This document shows positions 62 to 6,310 of a DNA stretch of 6,310 nt, piece after piece. The notes beneath the pieces were generated by a model. It was not told the DNA's origin. It worked only from the letters and a program-made list of their open reading frames with translations, and did no database searches. Source of the stretch: a virus (taxonomy: Duplodnaviria; Heunggongvirae; Uroviricota; Caudoviricetes); the IMG/VR virus record IMGVR_UViG_2660238309_000007, positions 1-6,310 of that record, one strand, 5' to 3'. The position numbers and the translations under genes were made by a program. Position 1 is the first letter of the stretch, and every line of letters starts with the position of its first letter.

Positions 62-81
62 GACATTCTGAGGTGACAGCG

Positions 82-960
82 ATGATGACGTTTAACCTGC
101 GTGAACAACAAAAAAGACTACAGGCGCGAATGGATGAGTTACGGGCAGAGATTGCATTTGCTCAGAAGGGCGAAAAGCCATGGCCTTATCGTTCCTGCCT
201 GATGCGTGAAGGTCGCGGATATTGCGAAAAACATGGCGAATATCACACGCATATACTGGTGTGGAGCGATCGTAATGGCGAGGACAGAGAAGAAATTTCA
301 TGCTGCCCTGACTGCTTAATCGCTGAGGCCAACGATTTGACCATGGAGCTGTCGTCCATCAAGGCGGAAGAGCTGACTGATAACGCCGGAATTGCCCTGC
401 GTTTTCGGGACTGCGAGTTTGATAATTATCTGGAGGTTAATCCTGGCGCAGCCAGAAATCTTGCGGCCTGTCGCCGCTATGCGGAGAACTGGCCAGATAT
501 GCTGGAGAACGGTACCAGTCTTGTTATGACCGGCAGTTGTGGTACCGGAAAAAATCATCTGGCTGTGGCTATGGCAAAACACATCATCCGTAACTATCTG
601 GCCAGTGTGGAGATCACCGACGTGATGCGCCTTACCCGTGCTGTGAAAAATTGCTGGCGGAATGACAGCGAAAAAACAGCGGATGAAGTTATTGAGCGTT
701 ATGCGTCAATGGATTTGCTGATCATCGACGAAGTTGGCGTTCAGTTTGGCAGCGCGGCTGAAATGGCTATTTTGCAGGAAATTATCAACGCCAGGTACGA
801 AAGTATCTTGCCCACCATTCTGATCAGTAACCTCTCACCGGAAGAGTTGTGGGCGTTCATCAGTCCCCGAATTGCCGACAGGATCACAGACGGGGGACGC
901 AACTGGTTGTCGTTTAACTGGCCCAGTTACCGTTCTCGTATCAGAGGTGTGGCTGCATGA
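82..960 (+). CDS. DnaC/IstB-like AAA+ helicase loader (phage replication protein)
   Basis: Walker A GSCGTGKNHLAVAMA and Walker B LLIIDEVG in the translation; N-terminal Cys/His cluster (C-x7-C ... CCPDC). Start placed at ATG 82 (GAGGTG Shine-Dalgarno at 70-75) rather than the GTG at 13 of the ORF track. Stop overlaps the next start (ATGA at 957-960). Confidence 0.8.
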   Translation: MMTFNLREQQKRLQARMDELRAEIAFAQKGEKPWPYRSCLMREGRGYCEKHGEYHTHILVWSDRNGEDREEISCCPDCLIAEANDLTMELSSIKAEELTDNAGIALRFRDCEFDNYLEVNPGAARNLAACRRYAENWPDMLENGTSLVMTGSCGTGKNHLAVAMAKHIIRNYLASVEITDVMRLTRAVKNCWRNDSEKTADEVIERYASMDLLIIDEVGVQFGSAAEMAILQEIINARYESILPTILISNLSPEELWAFISPRIADRITDGGRNWLSFNWPSYRSRIRGVAA

Positions 961-2348
961 CAACTCCAGTATGGCGTAACGATGACCTTGAAGGCGCTGT
1001 CATCGGCGCGTTCTTTCTGCGCGGAGCAGATCCTGAAGTGATGGATATTCTGGCCACACTGCCAGCGGACGTTTTTTCTGTACGAGCGTATCAGGATATC
1101 TATACAGGCATCTGCAGACAGGCCCGTGTTTCAGGAGTGATTGACCCCGTGCTGTTGTGTAATGAGATGCCGGAACTTGCCCCGGTGATTACTGATACCG
1201 GGCGTAAAACCTGGGTGAAGTCTTCACTGGAGCACTATGTTGCAGCGTTGCGGCGCAATGCCGCACTGCGCGATGCAGAAAAAACACTGAATGAGGCGCT
1301 GCAGAAATTACGTGATGCGCATACCTGTGAAGCAGCTGAAGATGCCCTGAAGGATGCGCAGAACATGATGGTCACACTGTCGACAGGAAAGGGCGTCATT
1401 CAGCCGGTACATATTGATGATGTGCTTCCGGAAGTGGTTGAGCGTGTTGAATGCCGGAATCAGGGGCTGGAGAAATCCAGGACGTTGATGACCGGTATTG
1501 ATGAACTGGACGCAAAAACAGGCGGTATGGAGCCCGGAGACCTGGTATTCATTGCCGCCCGTCCTTCGATGGGGAAAACCGAACTTGCGCTGGACATCAT
1601 CGACAAGGTGACTGAGCAGGGGCATGGTGTGCTTCTGTTCACCATGGAGATGGCGAACATCCAGATTGGTGAACGTATGGTGTCTGCGGCTGGAGGGATG
1701 CCAGTATCACGCCTGAAATCTGTGGCTCACTTTGAAGATGAAGACTGGACGCGTTTCTCACAAGGGGTGGGGCGGATGACCGGGCGCAATATCTGGATGG
1801 TGGACCAGGCGAACCTGGCCATTGATGAGATATGCGCAACAACGAAACACCACCTGATTAAATATCCGGAAACGGCGCTGGTGGTGGTTGATTATCTCGG
1901 GCTGATAAAAACCCGAACCACGGGGCGTCATGACCTTGCCGTGGGTGAAATCTCAAAGGGGCTTAAAGGCCTGGCAAAATCCGGTGGTTTTCCGTTGATT
2001 GCGCTGAGCCAGCTCTCCCGCGGTGTGGAGTCCAGACCCAATAAACGTCCCATGAACTCAGACCTGAAAAATTCCGGAGAAATAGAGGCGGATGCAGACA
2101 TCATTCTGATGCTTTACAGGGATGAAGTGTACAACCCGGATACGCAGGCCAGGGGCATCGCAGAAATCAATATCACGAAACAACGTAACGGTTCTCTGGG
2201 AACGATTTACCGGCGTTTTTATAACGGACATTTTCTGCCTGTGGACCAGGAAAGTGCACGGGTGCTTTCCACTCCCATGAAGCCCGGCAATCCGCGCAGA
2301 TACAGTAATAAACGAACTGACAGCAGTAAGATGGAGCGTTTCTTTTGA
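957..2348 (+). CDS. DnaB-family replicative helicase
   Basis: N-terminal DnaB-like domain pattern (LEGAVIGAFFL ... YQDIYTGI), Walker A ARPSMGKTELALDI, Walker B LVVVDYLGLI, motif IALSQLSR and late RecA-fold motifs. GAGGTG Shine-Dalgarno at 944-949. ATGA overlap with the upstream loader implies translational coupling. Confidence 0.88.
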   Translation: MTTPVWRNDDLEGAVIGAFFLRGADPEVMDILATLPADVFSVRAYQDIYTGICRQARVSGVIDPVLLCNEMPELAPVITDTGRKTWVKSSLEHYVAALRRNAALRDAEKTLNEALQKLRDAHTCEAAEDALKDAQNMMVTLSTGKGVIQPVHIDDVLPEVVERVECRNQGLEKSRTLMTGIDELDAKTGGMEPGDLVFIAARPSMGKTELALDIIDKVTEQGHGVLLFTMEMANIQIGERMVSAAGGMPVSRLKSVAHFEDEDWTRFSQGVGRMTGRNIWMVDQANLAIDEICATTKHHLIKYPETALVVVDYLGLIKTRTTGRHDLAVGEISKGLKGLAKSGGFPLIALSQLSRGVESRPNKRPMNSDLKNSGEIEADADIILMLYRDEVYNPDTQARGIAEINITKQRNGSLGTIYRRFYNGHFLPVDQESARVLSTPMKPGNPRRYSNKRTDSSKMERFF

Positions 2349-2602
2349 ACAACCAGACAATGACTTTTACCCCTGAACAATTGCGTAAACACGCGCAGGA
2401 AATGCTGCGTCATGCTGAACAACTCGAAAAAACGGGCATAACAAAAGATGCTATCCGTAAAGATATGGTACCCGCGCTTCGGGAACTGATGCAGGCGAAG
2501 CATCGCGCACAGAAAGCAGTAGATGAGCTGGTGGACTGTGTGGCAGAGCTGGAAACCAGAGTCGGAAAGTTTGAAAAACTGGTGCAGGAGGCGCTGCGCT
2601 GA
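2345..2602 (+). CDS. Small hypothetical protein, predicted coiled-coil (about 80-85 aa)
   Basis: ORF in the track; start ambiguous between TTG 2345 (GGAG about 10 nt upstream, overlaps helicase stop) and ATG 2360. No recognisable catalytic motif. Position matches the small-gene nin/ren zone of lambdoid phages. Confidence 0.5.
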   Translation: MNNQTMTFTPEQLRKHAQEMLRHAEQLEKTGITKDAIRKDMVPALRELMQAKHRAQKAVDELVDCVAELETRVGKFEKLVQEALR

Positions 2603-2697
2603 TGCGCCATGAGTTTGTTTTGCCCTGGCTTGTGCGCGATCATTATGTCCCTGGTGGAAAGCCCGGGATAAAAATCACCGAACCGGAGAGTATTTGA
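2602..2697 (+). CDS. 31-aa micro-ORF, translationally coupled on both sides (hypothetical)
   Basis: ATG at 2602 overlaps the stop of the upstream ORF (TGATG) and its own TGA at 2695-2697 overlaps the ATG of the NinH-like gene (TGATG). Translation MRHEFVLPWLVRDHYVPGGKPGIKITEPESI. Not in the ORF track (too short). Confidence 0.3.
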   Translation: MRHEFVLPWLVRDHYVPGGKPGIKITEPESI

Positions 2698-2897
2698 TGA
2701 GCGTCAAAATTCAAACGATACCGGAACTGCTTATCCAGACACGAGGTAATATGACCGAAGTTTCACGAATGCTGAACTGTAATCGCGCCACGGTAAGAAA
2801 ATATGCTGAAGATAAAGAGGGCAAAGGGCACGCCATTGTTGATGGTGTTCTGATTGTTCATCGTGGATGGGACAGGGGTAAAGACAGTGATGCGTGA
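2697..2897 (+). CDS. ninH: NinH-like small DNA-binding protein with Fis-type helix-turn-helix
   Basis: 66 aa; [22 protein letters not shown] matches the Fis/NtrC-type HTH signature (TRGN-x-T ... R-x-T-hydrophobic-RK); size and position immediately upstream of Q match lambdoid NinH. GGAG at 2684-2687 upstream of ATG 2697. Recalled family resemblance, not searched. Confidence 0.75.
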
Positions 2898-3270
2898 TAT
2901 TCAGCAGGTTCTTGAGCGCTGGGGCGCGTGGGTGGCTAATAATCATGAGGATGTGACCTGGTCGTCCATTGCTGCCGGTTTTAAGGGATTAATCCCTTCA
3001 AAAGTAAAATCCCGCCCGCAATGCTGTGACGATGACGCGATGGTTATATGTGGGTGTATGGCCCGCCTTAACCGGAACAACAACGATCTACATGACTTGC
3101 TGGTTGACTACTACGTGTTTGGGATGACATTCATGACGCTGGCGCGGAAGCATGGATGCTCAGATGGTTATATAGGAAAGAAGCTACAAAAAGCCGAGGG
3201 GGTGGTGGAAGGAATGTTGATGATGTTGGGTGTCCGGTTAGAAATGGACAAATATATTGAACATCCCTGA
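2890..3270 (+). CDS. Q-type late antiterminator (phage 82 / QuuD-like family)
   Basis: 126 aa from ATG 2890 (8-nt overlap with the NinH-like stop). Sequence [33 protein letters not shown] ... [16 protein letters not shown] resembles, from memory, the small Q antiterminators of cryptic lambdoid prophages. Followed by a short intergenic region and an intrinsic terminator as expected for a pR'/tR' cassette. Confidence 0.75.
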
Positions 3271-3356
3271 TGGTAAGGGGCGACTTTCTAGAAAATATTT
3301 TACGTACGTAAAAAACGGGATATTCTGTTAAGAGTGGTTGCTTCGCCACACAGCTT
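3271..3356 (+). promoter_or_regulatory. Expected location of late promoter (pR'-like) and Q-utilisation site
   Basis: Inferred from position between the Q stop and the terminator; AT-rich stretch with weak hexamers (ttttac 3298-3303, 17-bp spacer, tattct 3321-3326). No strong consensus match. Confidence 0.3.
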
Positions 3357-3382
3357 AAACCCGCCTCCGGGCGGGTTTTTTA
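3357..3382 (+). terminator. Rho-independent terminator (tR'-like)
   Basis: Stem cccgcc (3360-3365), loop tccg, stem ggcggg (3370-3375), then T-tract tttttt (3376-3381); an upstream aaa can pair with the T-tract. Confidence 0.75.
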
Positions 3383-3431
3383 TGCCTGAAAAACGGTACA
3401 GGACGTTAAACACGCTGGTGGTCAGATGAGT

Positions 3432-3460
3432 TTGCAGATGTGATGACATATGGTTATTAT
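3432..3460 (+). promoter_or_regulatory. Candidate sigma70 promoter for the tRNA array
   Basis: ttgcag (3432-3437), 17-bp spacer, tattat (3455-3460), about 10 nt upstream of the first tRNA. Moderate hexamer quality only. Confidence 0.35.
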
Positions 3461-3469
3461 TCTGCCTCC

Positions 3470-3546
3470 GGCCCTTTAGCTCAGTTGGTCAGAGCGAGCG
3501 ACTCATAATCGCCAGGTCGCTGGTTCAAGTCCAGCAAGGGCCACCA
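3470..3546 (+). tRNA. tRNA-Ile2 (anticodon CAU, presumably lysidine-modified, reads AUA)
   Basis: Cloverleaf read by hand: acceptor ggccctt/aagggcc, D-arm gctc...gagc, anticodon loop ctCATaa (CAT at 3504-3506), T-loop ttcaagt, discriminator a, encoded CCA. C4 and C5 in the acceptor stem and close similarity to enterobacterial ileX-type tRNA favour Ile2 over Met. Confidence 0.8.
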
Positions 3547-3547
3547 A

Positions 3548-3624
3548 CCACCACTAGCTCATCCGGATAGAGCATCAACCTTCTAAGTTGACGGTGCGAG
3601 GTTCGAGTCCTCGGTGGTGGGCCA
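3548..3624 (+). tRNA. tRNA-Arg (anticodon UCU, reads AGA/AGG)
   Basis: Acceptor ccaccac/gtggtgg (7 perfect pairs), D-arm gctc/gagc, anticodon stem tcaac/gttga with loop ctTCTaa (TCT at 3582-3584), T-arm cgagg-ttcgagt-cctcg, encoded CCA. Confidence 0.85.
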
Positions 3625-3626
3625 GC

Positions 3627-3702
<76 letters not shown>

Positions 3703-3705
3703 TAT

Positions 3706-3780
<75 letters not shown>

Positions 3781-3894
3781 TGACCTTTCTTAAAGTACTC
3801 CAACCTACTGAATCCTAAGGGATACGGCTTTAAGCCTCCTTGCAGAGTTACTTACTGTAACCCACTGTGTAACCCTCTCAGGGCATGCAGACAT

Positions 3895-5499
3895 ATGATT
3901 CAGCTATCCAGTAGTCACAAACTTCCAGCAGTCTACTATCTCTACCAGCGTAACGGCGTCTACTACTTCCGTCTTAGGGTCAGACAATCAAACAATGATA
4001 GAATGACCTCAATATCATTACGGACCAAGGATAGACGCACCGCTATGGCTTACTCAAGGCACATAAAGGCAGCACTCAAGGCAATACACGCAGACAGACC
4101 CAACGCTACCTATGAGGAAATGAGGGAACACCTTAAGGACATCGCTGAGTGTGAACTGTCTATGGGCCGTTCAGATCTCTTTGAGCCTGACATGAGGGAT
4201 ATCTACCGGGACCAATACGGAGAACTTGGTGAGAGCCTTACCGATGCTCTGGCTAGTGAGCCGCTAAGCATTGACCAGCATCGTTACATCAATGAGGCCC
4301 TGAAGGTGCTAAAAGCCTGTATGAGGCGTATCGAAGCGGGAGACAGTCAGCCTCTGATAGATTACGTCGATCTTTTTAATGATATTGATAGGCAAGATAA
4401 CCAAGCAGACTCTGTGTCCCTATCTGTTAATGCTCCAGAAGTAAAACCAGAAGTTACGCCTAGCATTACCATAGCGAGCCTCTTTGAACAATACGAAGCG
4501 GAGAACTATCAGAACTGGAAGCCTGCAACCTTAAGGGAAAACAAGGCGTCACACGCTGCGTTAATCGAAATATTCGACCATCTGGGTCTCAATGCAGACG
4601 CTAACAGGGCTGACATGCTTAGGGTCCGTGATGTGCTCCAGCAGTTACCTAGGAACCGTAAGCAGCGCTTCAAGGATGTCCCACTTGCTGACCTGTTGAG
4701 CCGTGAAGATAAGACAGATTGTCTGGATGTCGTTACCATCAACAACAAGTATCTTATTAAGATGGCTGCTGTCTTTAGGTGGGCTGTGCGCAATGACTTG
4801 ATTAAAAAGAACATGACTGAGGGTCTGGAGCTTAAAGTCCCTCAGCGTAAAGCCTCAGGGGCCCGTAACGCCTTCTCTACGGAGCAGGTGGGGCAACTAC
4901 TGGTCGCAGCTAAGGCATACTCTCAGAAGACCTCTGGTAAGCCGTATCATTATTATGTTACCGCCTTGGCTGCTATCACTGGGGCGAGACTCAATGAAAT
5001 AGCCCAACTACAGGTCAAAGACGTCAGGACCACTGAGGCGGGAACCGTTTATATTCATATCAATGAAGACGATAGTAGTCTACCCGGTAAGAGCATCAAG
5101 AACGCTCATAGTGACCGCTGTGTGCCTCTGGTCGATGGGGCCTATGGTTTTATATTGGCTGACTTTATGGCGCTTGTAGAGACCCGTAGAGGCGCTGACG
5201 GTGATGACGCTATGGTGTTCGATGGTCTGCGTCTCATGAAGAACGGTTACGGTGAGCAGGTGAGTAAATGGTTTAATCGGACGTTGTTGCCTAAAGTCCT
5301 CGTAGACCGTAGCGGCTTAGCGTTTCACTCGTTTAGACATACAGTTGCGGCCCAGTTAAAACAACATGGGGTCGAGTTGGCGTATGCACAGGCGATCATG
5401 GGGCATAGTTCAGGGTCTATTACGTACGACCGTTATGCTAAAGAGGTCGAGGTTGATAGGCTGGTCAATGTGATGGCTGATGTTTATAAGGAGACCTAG
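3895..5499 (+). CDS. Tyrosine recombinase / phage-type integrase (534 aa)
   Basis: C-terminal catalytic signature in the translation: ITGARLNEI (Arg), LAFHSFRHTVA (H-x-x-R), AIMGHSSG (His), SITYDRY (catalytic Tyr). N-terminal YYLYQRNGVYYFRLRV resembles an integrase N-terminal DNA-binding motif. Lies immediately 3' of the tRNA array. No strong Shine-Dalgarno upstream of ATG 3895. Confidence 0.88.
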   Translation: MIQLSSSHKLPAVYYLYQRNGVYYFRLRVRQSNNDRMTSISLRTKDRRTAMAYSRHIKAALKAIHADRPNATYEEMREHLKDIAECELSMGRSDLFEPDMRDIYRDQYGELGESLTDALASEPLSIDQHRYINEALKVLKACMRRIEAGDSQPLIDYVDLFNDIDRQDNQADSVSLSVNAPEVKPEVTPSITIASLFEQYEAENYQNWKPATLRENKASHAALIEIFDHLGLNADANRADMLRVRDVLQQLPRNRKQRFKDVPLADLLSREDKTDCLDVVTINNKYLIKMAAVFRWAVRNDLIKKNMTEGLELKVPQRKASGARNAFSTEQVGQLLVAAKAYSQKTSGKPYHYYVTALAAITGARLNEIAQLQVKDVRTTEAGTVYIHINEDDSSLPGKSIKNAHSDRCVPLVDGAYGFILADFMALVETRRGADGDDAMVFDGLRLMKNGYGEQVSKWFNRTLLPKVLVDRSGLAFHSFRHTVAAQLKQHGVELAYAQAIMGHSSGSITYDRYAKEVEVDRLVNVMADVYKET

Positions 5500-5587
5500 A
5501 GGAGACCATAGTCTAGGATGACACTTACTACAGACCTGTGTGGTCATGTTTTTGACTCATAGTTTTCTCTACTTGTCAAGGGATAAT

Positions 5588-5610
5588 TAATACGACTCAC
5601 TATAGGGAGA
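5588..5610 (+). promoter_or_regulatory. T7 RNA polymerase promoter, perfect 23-bp class III consensus (copy 1)
   Basis: taatacgactcactatagggaga at 5588-5610, exact match to the T7 consensus -17 to +6; predicted +1 G at 5605; transcription rightward on the + strand. Confidence 0.85.
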
Positions 5611-5708
5611 AGGGACACAAAAAGTTTTCTCTTCTAGGATGACACTTACTACAGACCTGTGCGGTCATGTTTTTGACTCATAGTTTTCTCTGCTTGTCAA
5701 GGGGTAAT

Positions 5709-5731
5709 TAATACGACTCACTATAGGGAGA
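5709..5731 (+). promoter_or_regulatory. T7 RNA polymerase promoter, perfect 23-bp consensus (copy 2)
   Basis: taatacgactcactatagggaga at 5709-5731; same orientation as copy 1. Confidence 0.85.
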
Positions 5732-5828
5732 AGGGACACAAAAAGTTTTCTCTTCTAGGATGACACTTACTACAGACCTGTGTGGTCATGTTTTTGACTC
5801 ATGGTTTTCTCTACTTGTCAAGGATAAT

Positions 5829-5851
5829 TAATACGACTCACTATAGGGAGA
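5829..5851 (+). promoter_or_regulatory. T7 RNA polymerase promoter, perfect 23-bp consensus (copy 3)
   Basis: taatacgactcactatagggaga at 5829-5851; same orientation. Confidence 0.85.
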
Positions 5852-6048
5852 AGGGACACAAAAAGTTTTCTCTTCTAGGACAACTAACCGTAACTTATCG
5901 CATCCTTTCAGGGGCGGGATGACCAATTACAGACACCAAGCGTTCTACTTAAAGTGAATGCTTCCTGTGTGCTCTGGGTCAGTCGATAAGTGAATAGCAA
6001 TAAGACACAATCATCTTAATTATGGTCTCTAGTCCCTACAGGGGCTTA

Positions 6049-6192
6049 ACTTAAAGTTAACTTAAAGACACAATTAAAGATTAACTTATAGTATTACTTA
6101 AAGTTAACTTAAAGACACAATTAGAGATTAACTTTAAGTATTAAATAAAAGATTTAATTAAAGACCAATTAAAGATTAACTCTAAGGGAATA
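6049..6192. repeat. AT-rich short tandem repeat array (TTAAAG / ACTTAAAG motifs; two 47-bp units plus degenerate copies)
   Basis: 6049-6095 (acttaaagttaacttaaagacacaattaaagattaacttatagtatt) and 6096-6142 differ at only 3 positions; 6143-6192 continues with degenerate aattaaag units. No ORF. Lies about 200 bp downstream of the third T7 promoter. Confidence 0.85.
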
Positions 6193-6248
6193 CCTTAAGG
6201 GGTGATGATATTTATAATAATCAATCACCAAACCTATAGGTCTTCTCT

Positions 6249-6309
6249 TGAAGTGGCACACTGAATTTGGCCACCTGAACAGAGGTGATATGCTCACCTC
6301 AGAACAACA
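6249..6309. repeat. Right terminal inverted repeat, 61 bp, perfect reverse complement of 1-61
   Basis: See left copy; perfect over 61 bp, with the same internal hairpins on the opposite strand. Confidence 0.9.
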
Positions 6310-6310
6310 C

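Follow-up and report, generated by a model that had tools for sequence, protein, structure and literature searches.

The gene for a long tyrosine integrase lies just downstream of four tRNA genes in the DNA analysed here, raising the question of what element this integrase served and where the far end of that element lies. The window, by which we mean the whole stretch of 6,310 nucleotides, had been given a first-pass annotation stating that the integrase gene starts 115 bp past tRNA-Gly and that no second copy of a tRNA 3′ end can be found between 3781 and 6310. Both statements held. The start codon lies 115 bp past the tRNA end because a 114-nt spacer separates the tRNA gene from the single long open reading frame downstream of the tRNAs (3895-5499 on the + strand), and GCCCGCTCCA, with up to one mismatch allowed, occurs in the window solely at 3771-3780. 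A repeat finder applied to 3300-6310 returned no tRNA-end repeat; its sole tRNA-related family reflected T-arm similarity between tRNA-Thr and tRNA-Gly. ARAGORN identified the four tRNAs as Met(CAT) at 3470-3546, Arg(TCT) at 3548-3624, Thr(TGT) at 3627-3702 and Gly(TCC) at 3706-3780, and an Rfam scan of the whole window revealed nothing beyond them.

The integrase and its missing attachment site

Pfam placed Phage_integrase (PF00589) at residues 329-516 of the encoded protein (E 2e-17) and DUF6538 at residues 15-63. The PF00589 match, together with the R...HxxR...H/W...Y residues, identifies the protein as a tyrosine recombinase, and catalytic residues R365, H478, R481, H504 and Y514 were invariant across 23 homologues. 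The possibility that the gene might prove truncated was not borne out: the reading frame is intact and a 769-member protein cluster with the name ‘site-specific integrase [Shigella flexneri]’ matches its product at 100% identity. The length of 534 aa had been considered unusual; it is long for a phage integrase but normal in its own clade, where 25 relatives range from 516 to 587 aa. Three parts ahead of the catalytic domain account for the length: DUF6538 at the N terminus, an inserted helical segment and a linker that varies among relatives; the secondary structure of this layout was taken from a low-confidence model. The linker apparently spans residues 164-192, approximately, and is probably unstructured, as suggested by the same model and by alignment indels. 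The AlphaFold model of the integrase was too poor (pLDDT 39.6), and it was therefore left out of the fold search, while a profile search against solved structures gave no match at E <= 0.001. Among phage proteins, the closest homologues came from integrase-bearing temperate phages of the T7 type, Pseudomonas phage vB_PsyP_3MF5 (Warsawvirus) being one example; identity was 30-32% across 97% of the protein (E 4e-63). In phages of this type int adjoins the right terminal repeat.

Comparison with other genomes placed the integrase gene in the left part of an integrative island (Table 1). Relatives of this island were found in 30 complete E. coli genomes, with 86-94% identity and at glyU beside actS, as well as in 20 species-representative genomes across Enterobacterales. 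Island-bearing strains include E. coli FT130, 21AR0133, E110019 and AW1.7 and K. pneumoniae ATCC 13883. Twelve complete relatives contain an exact repeat of 17-23 bp of the tRNA-Gly 3′ end, located 4.0-7.3 kb from attL; the family integrates by means of its tyrosine integrase into the 3′ end of tRNA-Gly and leaves this direct repeat behind. Nearly all complete islands have one pair of TGTAACC motifs +76/+88 from their left end and a second pair -98/-86 from their right end; these are candidate arm sites for the integrase. The integrase gene adjoins a tRNA gene and arm-type repeats are present in both arms, the window containing the left pair only. The family is a tRNA-targeting integrative genomic island, of which the window contains a truncated copy.

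The usual target of the family across Enterobacterales is the chromosomal tRNA-Gly(CCC). The tRNA-Gly(UCC) of the window is a secondary target that resembles the usual glyU tRNA-Gly(CCC) end, TTCGATTCCCTTCGCCCGCTCCA. In many E. coli genomes lambdoid prophage homology (99.9%) terminates exactly at 3780, and island homology begins at 3781; in this lineage the island went into a site similar to the usual one, namely the tRNA-Gly(UCC) that a lambdoid prophage carries between Q and its lysis genes. The prophage location of the island appears to be incidental, by way of a phage-borne tRNA-Gly.

The first-pass annotation offered three explanations for the missing repeat. The proposal that the far attachment site lies outside the window is correct in principle: an intact copy would have attR beyond 6310, because the repeats of the 12 complete relatives lie at the distances given above. 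It does not apply to the present copy, which is cut by an insertion sequence (IS) at 6249. The two nearest relatives, L030 and L027, have a 100% identical int, and in each of them IS1 truncates the rest of the island, beyond which lie tail-fibre genes of the prophage; no attR was found in either of them. L027 lacks the IS911-family insertion of the window, and island sequence runs on there. Past 6310, the IS911 element of the present copy is expected to give way, as in L030, to island repeats and an rha-like gene cut by IS1, with no attR. Because IS insertions broke the island of this lineage, its attR is gone and the far-end repeat cannot be seen. The description of the gene as a relic is apt for the window copy of the element, which is decayed and itself non-functional as a mobile element, but not for the int reading frame. 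Finally, the suggestion that the integrase acts on the terminal inverted repeats of the window must be abandoned: positions 1-62 and 6249-6310 are identical, inverted ends of an IS3/IS911-family element that has its own DDE transposase.

Table 1. Coordinates of the features discussed in the text, numbered from the first nucleotide of the window.
Feature	Position	Strand	Basis
tRNA-Gly(UCC), prophage-borne	3706-3780	+	ARAGORN; prophage homology stops at 3780
attL core, 3′ end of tRNA-Gly(UCC), TTCGATTCCCGCTGCCCGCTCCA	3758-3780	+	adjoins island start at 3781
Left ~2.5 kb of integrative island (family 4.0-6.4 kb), right side cut by IS	3781-6248	+	homology to relatives
Two TGTAACC motifs 12 bp apart, candidate left-arm integrase sites	3856-3862, 3868-3874	+	pair conserved in relatives
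Tyrosine integrase, 534 aa, intact	3895-5499	+	Pfam, protein cluster, conserved catalytic residues
CTCTGTGTCCCTATCTGTTA, 20/20 match to T7 concatemer junction	4410-4429	+	T7 positions 149-168
3.1 tandem copies of a 121-bp unit (96% matches), one phage promoter each	5512-5880	+	repeat analysis
Exact 23-bp T7 RNA polymerase promoter TAATACGACTCACTATAGGGAGA, copy 1	5588-5610	+	none expected, from 200 shuffles
Exact T7 promoter, copy 2	5709-5731	+	sequence match
Exact T7 promoter, copy 3	5829-5851	+	sequence match
Highly conserved non-coding block, promoter-proximal transcript	5885-6000	+	comparison of islands
AT-rich (about 31-35% GC) TTAAAG-type repeat array, candidate T7-type origin region	6046-6181	+	alignment to T7
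Imperfect palindrome GGTGATGATATTTATAATAATCAATCACC, conserved	6201-6229		comparison with relatives
Left end of IS3/IS911-family insertion sequence interrupting the island	6249-6310	+	same end inverted at 1-62

Phage-like signals in and downstream of int

Downstream of int, tandem copies of a 121-bp unit, which number 1 to 3 among the relatives, each contain a predicted promoter for phage RNA polymerase. All three promoters in the window match the T7-group (class III-type) consensus from -17 to +6, TAATACGACTCACTATAGGGAGA, exactly, and the identity extends to 27/27 positions of T7 phi13 and to 26/26 of phi6.5, phi10 and phiOR. When 36 kb of sequence downstream of int from 23 loci was searched, the promoter core CACTATAGGGAGA was found 21 times on the + strand and never on the - strand; 436 kb of flanking sequence contained no copy. 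All family members carry exact or nearly exact promoters for single-subunit phage RNA polymerases, on the int strand and 3′ of int. Klebsiella islands combine an exact K11 promoter with an exact T7 promoter, Citrobacter and Enterobacter islands have a Kayfunavirus-type promoter (23/23 to phiOR of EcoDS1), and some relatives have promoters of the ICP3/N4 vibriophage type. Island copies from metagenomes showed the same promoter pattern. Of 5,426 complete E. coli genomes, 63 had the promoter unit, always at one chromosomal locus and in no case on a plasmid. Scans of the island for sigma-70 promoters and terminators gave results that were not above those for shuffled sequences.

The promoters are followed by a non-coding block (5885-6000) that is nearly identical in the E. 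coli, Rouxiella, RIT691 and Morganella islands and whose core motifs are kept in Klebsiella. This block could form a candidate stem-loop structure of ~100 nt, in which four pairs show compensatory changes; none of 500 shuffles reached the observed value, and slid controls gave at most one. Farther downstream, an AT-rich block aligns to the region downstream of T7 phiOL and to the AT-rich segment within the phage's primary origin, with modest scores (38 and 39, versus shuffle maxima of 33 and 32) that none of 200 block shuffles equalled. Every T7 origin requires a T7 promoter (PMC8373140), and the order found in the window, promoters and then an AT-rich region, is that of a T7 origin, the alignment scores of the AT-rich part being modest. 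The palindrome at 6201-6229 shows 0-1 changes in E. coli relatives and 4/29 mismatches in Klebsiella.

A third phage-like signal lies inside int itself. The motif CTCTGTGTCCCTATCTGTTA consists of the last 12 nt of the T7 terminal repeat, which is the mature right end of the genome, followed by ATCTGTT, the core of a class II signal for pausing or termination (see 10.1101/2021.01.11.426313); this core and the 13 nucleotides that flank it are identical to the phage junction, in the right orientation. It occupies codons S173-N179 in the linker and has the same orientation as the promoters. The junction motif likewise matches K11 170-188 at 19/19 positions, and the records of phages K11 and EcoDS1 label the homologous site ‘concatemeric junction’. 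Within an otherwise variable linker TCC CTA TCT GT is kept, synonymous sites included. Islands with T7- or K11-type promoters contain ATCTGTT, as do T7 and K11, and those with Kayfunavirus-type promoters contain ATCTGTA, as does EcoDS1, a co-variation behind which stand about two integrase lineages. The same bases code for a conserved peptide, SVSLSV, and the conservation of the motif's codons, though high, is not extreme (between the 77th and 95th percentiles among comparable codons; 162nd of 530 windows of five codons). Neither the phage left end TCTCACAGT nor the terminal repeat was found when sought in the islands, the mimicry being confined to 20 bp of the junction.

Cargo and probable nature of the island

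In full-length relatives the promoters face a module that encodes a KilA-N/Rha-type DNA-binding protein, a small protein, DUF6971 and a capsid-like protein with an HK97 fold; the 4.0-4.3 kb E. coli variants are without the capsid-like gene. The AlphaFold model of the capsid-like protein was of moderate quality (pLDDT 67). A Foldseek search of BFVD with this model gave 145 matches at E <= 0.001 with low TM-scores (0.3-0.4), and among the best 50 of the 145 the named matches were almost all capsid or head proteins. Its sequence does not resemble T7 gp10 (hhalign probability 0.2%) and gave no tblastn match in 50,697 phage records. Replication initiator, terminase and portal genes are absent from the islands, and scans of the family with Pfam, PHROGs and NCBIfam detected no primase, replicase or terminase.

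Some members, for example L007, carry the anti-T7 defence gene PD-T7-4/RAZR (match E 8e-99), which overlaps the integrase stop codon in L007, L013-L016 and L034. The window lacks this gene (zinc-finger plus DUF4145, HEPN-like), and the promoter repeats follow the int stop codon directly. According to published work, PD-T7-4 ‘often overlaps an integrase gene’ (PMC9519451) and the portal of T7 is what RAZR senses (PMC13017515). As an abortive-infection gene, RAZR would fit a purely defensive role equally well.

Taken together, the promoters, the origin-like block, the junction motif, the capsid-like gene and RAZR therefore make a satellite that also defends its host the most likely identity of the island. 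We lean towards the view that 3781-6248 is what remains, on the integrase side, of a small integrative island parasitic on T7-like (Studiervirinae) phages. In an intact island, the RNA polymerase of an infecting T7-like phage would fire the promoters and turn on the KilA-N/Rha-type protein, the small protein, DUF6971 and the capsid-like protein. The same transcription would prime the phage replisome to replicate from the neighbouring AT-rich region, in the manner of a T7 origin. Once the island had excised, transcription around the circle or along a concatemer would reach the junction-like motif in int, where the phage polymerase would pause as it does at the T7 concatemer junction and so mark the DNA for the helper terminase; use of this junction would leave DNA ends at ...CTCTGTGTCCCT within int. 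Island DNA would then be packaged, perhaps in small capsids made with the island’s own shell protein, and the members that carry PD-T7-4/RAZR would abort T7 infection. The attP-junction pattern of excised circles had no match in viral/IMG/VR or metagenome contigs, and a search for virome-only copies with a conserved island motif found that all 23 metagenome copies and the IMG/VR copies were integrated. Contigs of ~6 kb containing the capsid-like gene were considered as free elements and rejected, as host flanks were present.

The promoters could instead be infection sensors of a defence island that is triggered by the phage polymerase and is no satellite, a possibility that we regard as real but unlikely. 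They would over-express genes that block the phage (those for the KilA-N/Rha regulator, a head-poisoning capsid-like protein and, in other members, RAZR). Phage polymerase, replisome or terminase would be drawn off by decoys in the form of the tandem promoters, the mimic of an origin and the junction motif, and the island would have spread by ordinary horizontal transfer and integrase action only. However, RAZR lies upstream of the phage promoters and is missing from many members, including the window, and a sensor alone explains neither the AT-rich origin-like block nor a junction motif that tracks the cognate phage type. The integrase, arm sites and intact att repeats have been kept in many genera, which shows sustained mobility, and elements that form particles typically encode an HK97 shell protein of their own.

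The kinship of the integrase to those of T7-like phages such as vB_PsyP_3MF5, in which int lies beside the right terminal repeat, would fit a decayed temperate T7-like prophage, with the integrase, promoters, origin and junction as functionless leftovers of a full-length Studiervirinae phage. This is improbable, as intact att repeats recur at a consistent 4.0-6.4 kb in many genera, T7-like genes were found in none of the islands, the capsid-like protein resembles neither T7 gp10 nor anything in the phage records searched, and random decay would not keep exact promoters of several specificities in one island. Such a prophage may be the origin of the family, not its present nature. Laboratory vectors commonly carry T7 promoters and the window copy is riddled with IS elements, features that suit an ordinary tRNA-targeting integrase remnant whose T7-like sequences arose by chance or by vector contamination. 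We give this account almost no credence. The 23-mer occurs three times where none is expected, the promoter unit has a fixed chromosomal locus, other genera have promoters of natural non-T7 phages that are not used in vectors, and the flanks are island sequence rather than vector; these comparative data refute both chance and contamination.

More tentatively, and with doubt slightly outweighing belief, we propose for the satellite reading a general form: that the family comprises widespread minimalist satellites of strictly virulent T7-like phages in Enterobacterales, with induction by the RNA polymerase of the helper at sets of cognate promoters, a T7-origin mimic, a junction signal hidden in int, HK97-fold capsids of their own and an origin from an integrase-bearing T7-like phage. 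Chromosomes with exact T7, K11 and Kayfunavirus promoters show that bacteria or mobile elements exploit the orthogonality of phage RNA polymerases, and cognate promoters could directly sense infection and commandeer the phage's transcription, its replication and possibly its packaging. Were the island a satellite, genes would move by a new route, driven by virulent phages, in E. coli, Klebsiella, Citrobacter and plant pathogens; the defence gene PD-T7-4/RAZR would have its genomic setting explained; and a cis-acting DNA signal would be overprinted on the integrase reading frame. T7 is the textbook example of a strictly lytic phage, and phages like it find wide use in both therapy and biotechnology. 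Should the satellite reading hold, therapeutic lysates could mobilise the islands and the islands could cut phage yield. The promoter content of an island might also predict which T7-like phages a strain has met in the past.

Comparison with known elements

Our best reading is that the window contains a decayed copy of an island so far undescribed, either a satellite of virulent phages of the T7 type or a defence against them. A search of the open literature returned no satellite of T7-like phages and no chromosomal T7 promoters, and only papers on PD-T7-4 were relevant. [quoted passage not shown] The capsid-forming or cf-PICIs (EcCI2 major head protein, 9gyi; compare SaPI capsid-size redirection, SaPIbov5 Ccm, 7rwz) are 10-15 kb, also encode portal, protease, connectors and terminase, and take only tails from temperate helpers. 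The island family has a single HK97-fold, capsid-like gene, which is missing from the 4-kb variants, plus DUF6971. Of the P4-like functions psu, delta, sid, alpha primase and epsilon, none was detected in the family scans.

A parallel may be found in the T7 transducing plasmids that Chung and Hinkle reportedly engineered in 1990 with a T7 origin plus the concatemer junction (cited in PMC13172314). Both the plasmids and the island place a T7-promoter-dependent origin, candidate in the island, and junction sequence on a small replicon; the plasmids reportedly contain the whole cloned junction with the terminal repeat, whereas the island has the last 12 nt of the repeat and the pause core, within a coding region. 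The temperate T7-like phages related to vB_PsyP_3MF5 share the long integrase architecture of the island but are 40-kb phages with the full T7 gene set, which the island does not have.

The overlap of RAZR with an integrase gene is the arrangement reported in 2022 for the PD-T7-4/RAZR locus (PMC9519451; PMC13017515); text searches of these two papers returned no mention of the island or its att sites, nor of the phage promoters, the junction motif or the capsid-like gene. Helper-embedded PICIs (PMC10111431) resemble the island of the window in being satellite-like islands that lie inside a lambdoid prophage, where its late region begins. They differ in having integrases of another clade, late protein genes as targets and the surrounding prophage as helper, whereas the signals of the island point to T7-like phages. 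PICMI, the phage-inducible chromosomal minimalist island of Vibrionaceae (PMC10803314), is likewise a very small island with an integrase and very few genes. It combines a virulent helper with defence cargo, as the present island does by hypothesis, its helper dependence being predicted from sequence. PICMI lies next to fis, encodes AlpA and its own replication functions, has no capsid gene and is packaged as a concatemer, with no helper-polymerase promoters reported; in contrast, the island family targets tRNA-Gly, has no replication protein, often encodes a capsid-like protein and carries promoters for the single-subunit RNA polymerases of phages.

Boundaries and decay of an integrative island

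Positions 62-3780 are a lambdoid prophage segment encoding a DnaC-like loader, DnaB helicase, NinH, antiterminator Q and a tRNA array. This segment is 99.9% identical to prophages of many E. coli genomes, and the identity ends exactly at 3780, the final base of tRNA-Gly. In the uninterrupted relative VL7S7, a holin gene follows this tRNA. ARAGORN called the first tRNA of the array Met(CAT), and the identical VL7S7 gene is labeled tRNA-Ile in RefSeq, which probably denotes lysidine-modified Ile2. The island beginning at 3781 sits in the prophage late region, preceded by Q and the tRNAs and followed by the holin gene, and has the same reading direction. Were the copy intact, late transcription antiterminated by Q would enter the island, and phage-polymerase transcription from the island would exit toward the prophage lysis genes.

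Features of the tRNA array, integrase gene (int) and downstream DNA
Feature	Position	Remarks
tRNA-Met/Ile2(CAT)	3470-3546	+ strand
tRNA-Arg(TCT)	3548-3624	+ strand
tRNA-Thr(TGT)	3627-3702	+ strand
tRNA-Gly(TCC)	3706-3780	+ strand
int ORF	3895-5499	534 aa; sole long ORF after the tRNA array
121-bp unit, 3.1 tandem copies	5512-5880	directly 3′ of int
Exact 23-bp T7 RNA-polymerase promoter TAATACGACTCACTATAGGGAGA, three copies	starts 5588, 5709, 5829	int strand; one per 121-bp unit
AT-rich array of TTAAAG-type repeats	6046-6181	GC ~31-35%; ~195 bp past last promoter

The integrase contains a Phage_integrase catalytic domain (PF00589, aa 329-516, E 2e-17 in Pfam) and an N-terminal DUF6538, and its catalytic residues R365, H478, R481, H504 and Y514 are unchanged in 23 of 23 homologues. 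It is 100% identical to a 769-member protein cluster named Shigella flexneri site-specific integrase. Relatives of 3781-6248 were found in 30 complete E. coli genomes (86-94% identity), almost all at chromosomal glyU, the tRNA-Gly(CCC) gene adjoining actS, and in 20 species-representative genomes; the genera include Klebsiella, Citrobacter, Enterobacter, Pectobacterium, Serratia, Morganella, Proteus, Buttiauxella and Kluyvera. The window copy occupies a secondary target site. At glyU of strain 21AR0133, an unrelated second integrase island lies in tandem (L002 27432-37506) and the att repeat occurs a third time, at 37489; a similar tandem junction is present in L057, and the tRNA-Gly site is a hotspot common to several islands.

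In 12 complete relatives an exact repeat of the final 17-23 nt of the tRNA, TTCGATTCCCTTCGCCCGCTCCA, lies 4.0-6.4 kb farther downstream, a distance that grows to 7.3 kb in one relative carrying an IS5 insert. Nearly all complete islands also contain pairs of TGTAACC with 12 bp spacing, ~76/88 bp inside the left end and ~86/98 bp inside the right end, that look like arm-type integrase sites; only the left pair falls within the window (3856 and 3868). The first-pass annotation had reported that neither the tRNA-Gly 3′ end nor any other tRNA end is repeated in 3781-6310, and this observation is correct. The repeat is missing because attR of an intact island would lie beyond the window and because attR was deleted in the window lineage. 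A far site outside the window, as had been suggested, is therefore right for the intact island but not for this copy. Similarly, the term relic applies to the element, which is cut by an IS at 6249 and has lost attR, but not to int, which is intact.

The nearest relative, L030, is 99.8% identical to 3371-6310 and carries the same IS. There the island continues past the IS to a rha-like gene that is cut by IS1, followed by another IS and prophage tail-fibre genes. A second near relative, L027, is without the IS911 insertion, yet has the same IS1 truncation; attR was found in neither L030 nor L027. The window begins (1-62) and ends (6249-6310) with the left end of an IS3/IS911-family element, identical in sequence but in opposite orientations. 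The prophage-plus-island segment 63-6248 is therefore enclosed by inverted IS copies and could invert or move as a composite unit.

Both GGGTTCGATTCCC and GCCCGCTCCA are common to the prophage tRNA-Gly(UCC) and glyU. A second island subtype, whose integrase is 73% identical, independently inserted into a prophage tRNA of this kind in L029. At L029 9807-9881 the 3′ end of tRNA-Gly(UCC) is replaced by glyU-type sequence; in the window the native prophage sequence persists, a difference that hints at the place of strand exchange.

Phage RNA-polymerase promoters and adjoining non-coding DNA

No exact T7 promoter match is expected by chance in the window. With their flanks, the window promoters match T7 phi13 at 27/27 positions and phi6.5, phi10 and phiOR at 26/26. 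Across 23 loci the promoter core CACTATAGGGAGA occurred 21 times on the + strand, always within 1.5 kb after int, and never on the − strand, and it was absent from the 436 kb of DNA flanking these loci. Phage-polymerase promoters are a trait of the island family. Of 5,426 complete E. coli genomes, 63 carry the T7-promoter unit, in every case on the chromosome, which rules out vector contamination as its source. The 121-bp unit is present three times in the window and L030, twice in L002 and L003, and once in L027, L005 and L006. Because the number differs even between copies with 100% identical int, the array grows and shrinks quickly.

The specificity-determining upstream promoter bases vary with the host and match real phages. 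In the island of K. pneumoniae ATCC 13883, one promoter is exactly that of K11, one is a copy with a single mismatch, one is a variant and one is an exact T7 promoter. Kayfunavirus-type promoters (23/23 to EcoDS1 phiOR), a type found at six places in each phage genome, occur in islands of Citrobacter, Enterobacter and Buttiauxella, and the promoter type of Proteus and Kluyvera islands is identical to annotated promoters of ICP3/N4-like vibriophages. No phage matching the AATTAGGTAGCACTATAGGGAGA-type promoter was found. Many islands combine two to four specificities. Promoter batteries within single islands (L007 12265-12841, from K. pneumoniae ATCC 13883; L039-L061) comprised K11-type, GGTAG-variant, exact T7 and T3-like CACTAAAGGGAGA promoters, suggesting a response to several phage genera.

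Work from the Richardson laboratory reportedly assigned the adjacent AT-rich region a role in T7 origins. When compared with 200 composition-preserving block shuffles, the island's AT-rich array aligned with T7 DNA just downstream of phiOL (~nt 413-472; score 38, shuffle maximum 33) and with the AT-rich part of the primary origin after phi1.1A/B (~nt 5951-6026; score 39, shuffle maximum 32). Each T7 origin consists of a T7 promoter, and the RNA made from it serves as primer for DNA synthesis (PMC8373140). Together, the promoters and the AT-rich block give the island a T7-type origin architecture, with a putative origin function.

Within the T7/K11-type island subfamily no non-coding block is better conserved than 5885-6000, which lies in the promoter-proximal transcript and is near-identical in most genera, whereas int is only 81-87% identical. 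It contains a candidate ~100-nt stem-loop in which four pairs have compensatory changes (0/500 shuffles; slid controls ≤1), for a structure taken from the same alignment of only 8 distinct sequences. Past the AT-rich block are dense short tandem-repeat arrays of GGGTCTCTCTCTA (~9 copies), CTCAGTTTTGAGC and CACCACCAG (L002 22485-22850; L030 13604-13830; window 6236-6248), which may be iterons or binding sites for a KilA-N/Rha protein. The window IS inserted into the first of these arrays.

A T7 concatemer-junction motif within int

The sequence at 4410-4429, CTCTGTGTCCCTATCTGTTA, is identical (20/20) to T7 nt 149-168, the last 12 nt of the 160-bp terminal repeat followed by ATCTGTT; those 12 nt are also the mature right end of the T7 genome (39926-39937). 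The same 19-mer occurs at the annotated concatemeric junction of K11 and in the Klebsiella island. The motif sits in the integrase linker (codons S173-N179), and its orientation fits polymerases travelling from the island promoters round a circle or concatemer. It also codes for a conserved peptide. Among 25 integrases, TCC CTA TCT GT is kept, synonymous sites included, amid a hypervariable, indel-bearing linker, and the third base of Leu176 is A in 100%; codon identity at S175, L176 and S177 ranks at the 77th, 88th and 95th percentiles among 93 conserved Leu/Ser/Arg columns. ATCTGTT is found in islands with T7/K11-type promoters and ATCTGTA in those with Kayfunavirus-type promoters, a co-variation drawn from roughly two integrase lineages. 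The annotated EcoDS1 junction also reads ATCTGTA (GAGTCTCT followed by ATCTGTAT). Neither a phage terminal repeat nor a left-end mimic was found in the islands.

Cargo, ancestry and reading of the element

Complete relatives carry four genes past the promoters, encoding a KilA-N/Rha/Bro-Ant type DNA-binding protein, a 62-76 aa protein, DUF6971 and a 326-402 aa protein. The last gave no family match, and its gene is absent from the 4.0-4.3 kb E. coli variants. This protein, the capsid-like protein of full-length islands, is predicted, with moderate confidence, to have an HK97 fold. A serine recombinase/invertase gene replaces the capsid-like gene in Morganella (L013 14592-15224) and Citrobacter braakii (L023 14623-15210). 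In several members, PD-T7-4 (E 8e-99) overlaps the stop codon of int; it is absent from the window copy. PD-T7-4 is RAZR, an RNase whose detection of the T7 portal leads to abortive infection (PMC13017515), and Vassallo et al. noted only its frequent overlap with integrase genes (PMC9519451).

The closest phage homologues of the integrase are those of T7-like temperate phages (30-32% identity over 97% of the length, E 4e-63); one example, Pseudomonas phage vB_PsyP_3MF5 (Studiervirinae, Warsawvirus), has its int flanked by the terminase gene on one side and by the right terminal repeat on the other. Judged from this homology, the island family may descend from an integrase-bearing T7-like temperate phage.

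We lean toward the island being a satellite of T7-like phages that also defends its host. In this mechanism, phage polymerase would induce the island, the AT-rich block would work as an origin, the junction motif would pause polymerase and recruit packaging, and particles would be made. Chung and Hinkle (1990) reportedly found that a T7 origin plus the junction sequence rendered plasmids packageable by T7. Weighing against a satellite are the only partial junction mimic, the lack of replication or terminase genes in the island, and our failure to find an excised or packaged form among IMG/VR and metagenome contigs. A purely defensive island, using phage promoters as infection sensors, is possible but distinctly less probable than a defending satellite, and all remaining readings taken together are improbable.

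Full-text searches of the literature, covering few subscription journals, turned up no account of a satellite of T7-like phages, nor of any chromosomal island that bears T7-type promoters. The gene content of the island differs from the defining gene set of each of PICI, cf-PICI, P4 and PICMI, and we class the element among phage satellites or defence islands, outside these four defined classes.
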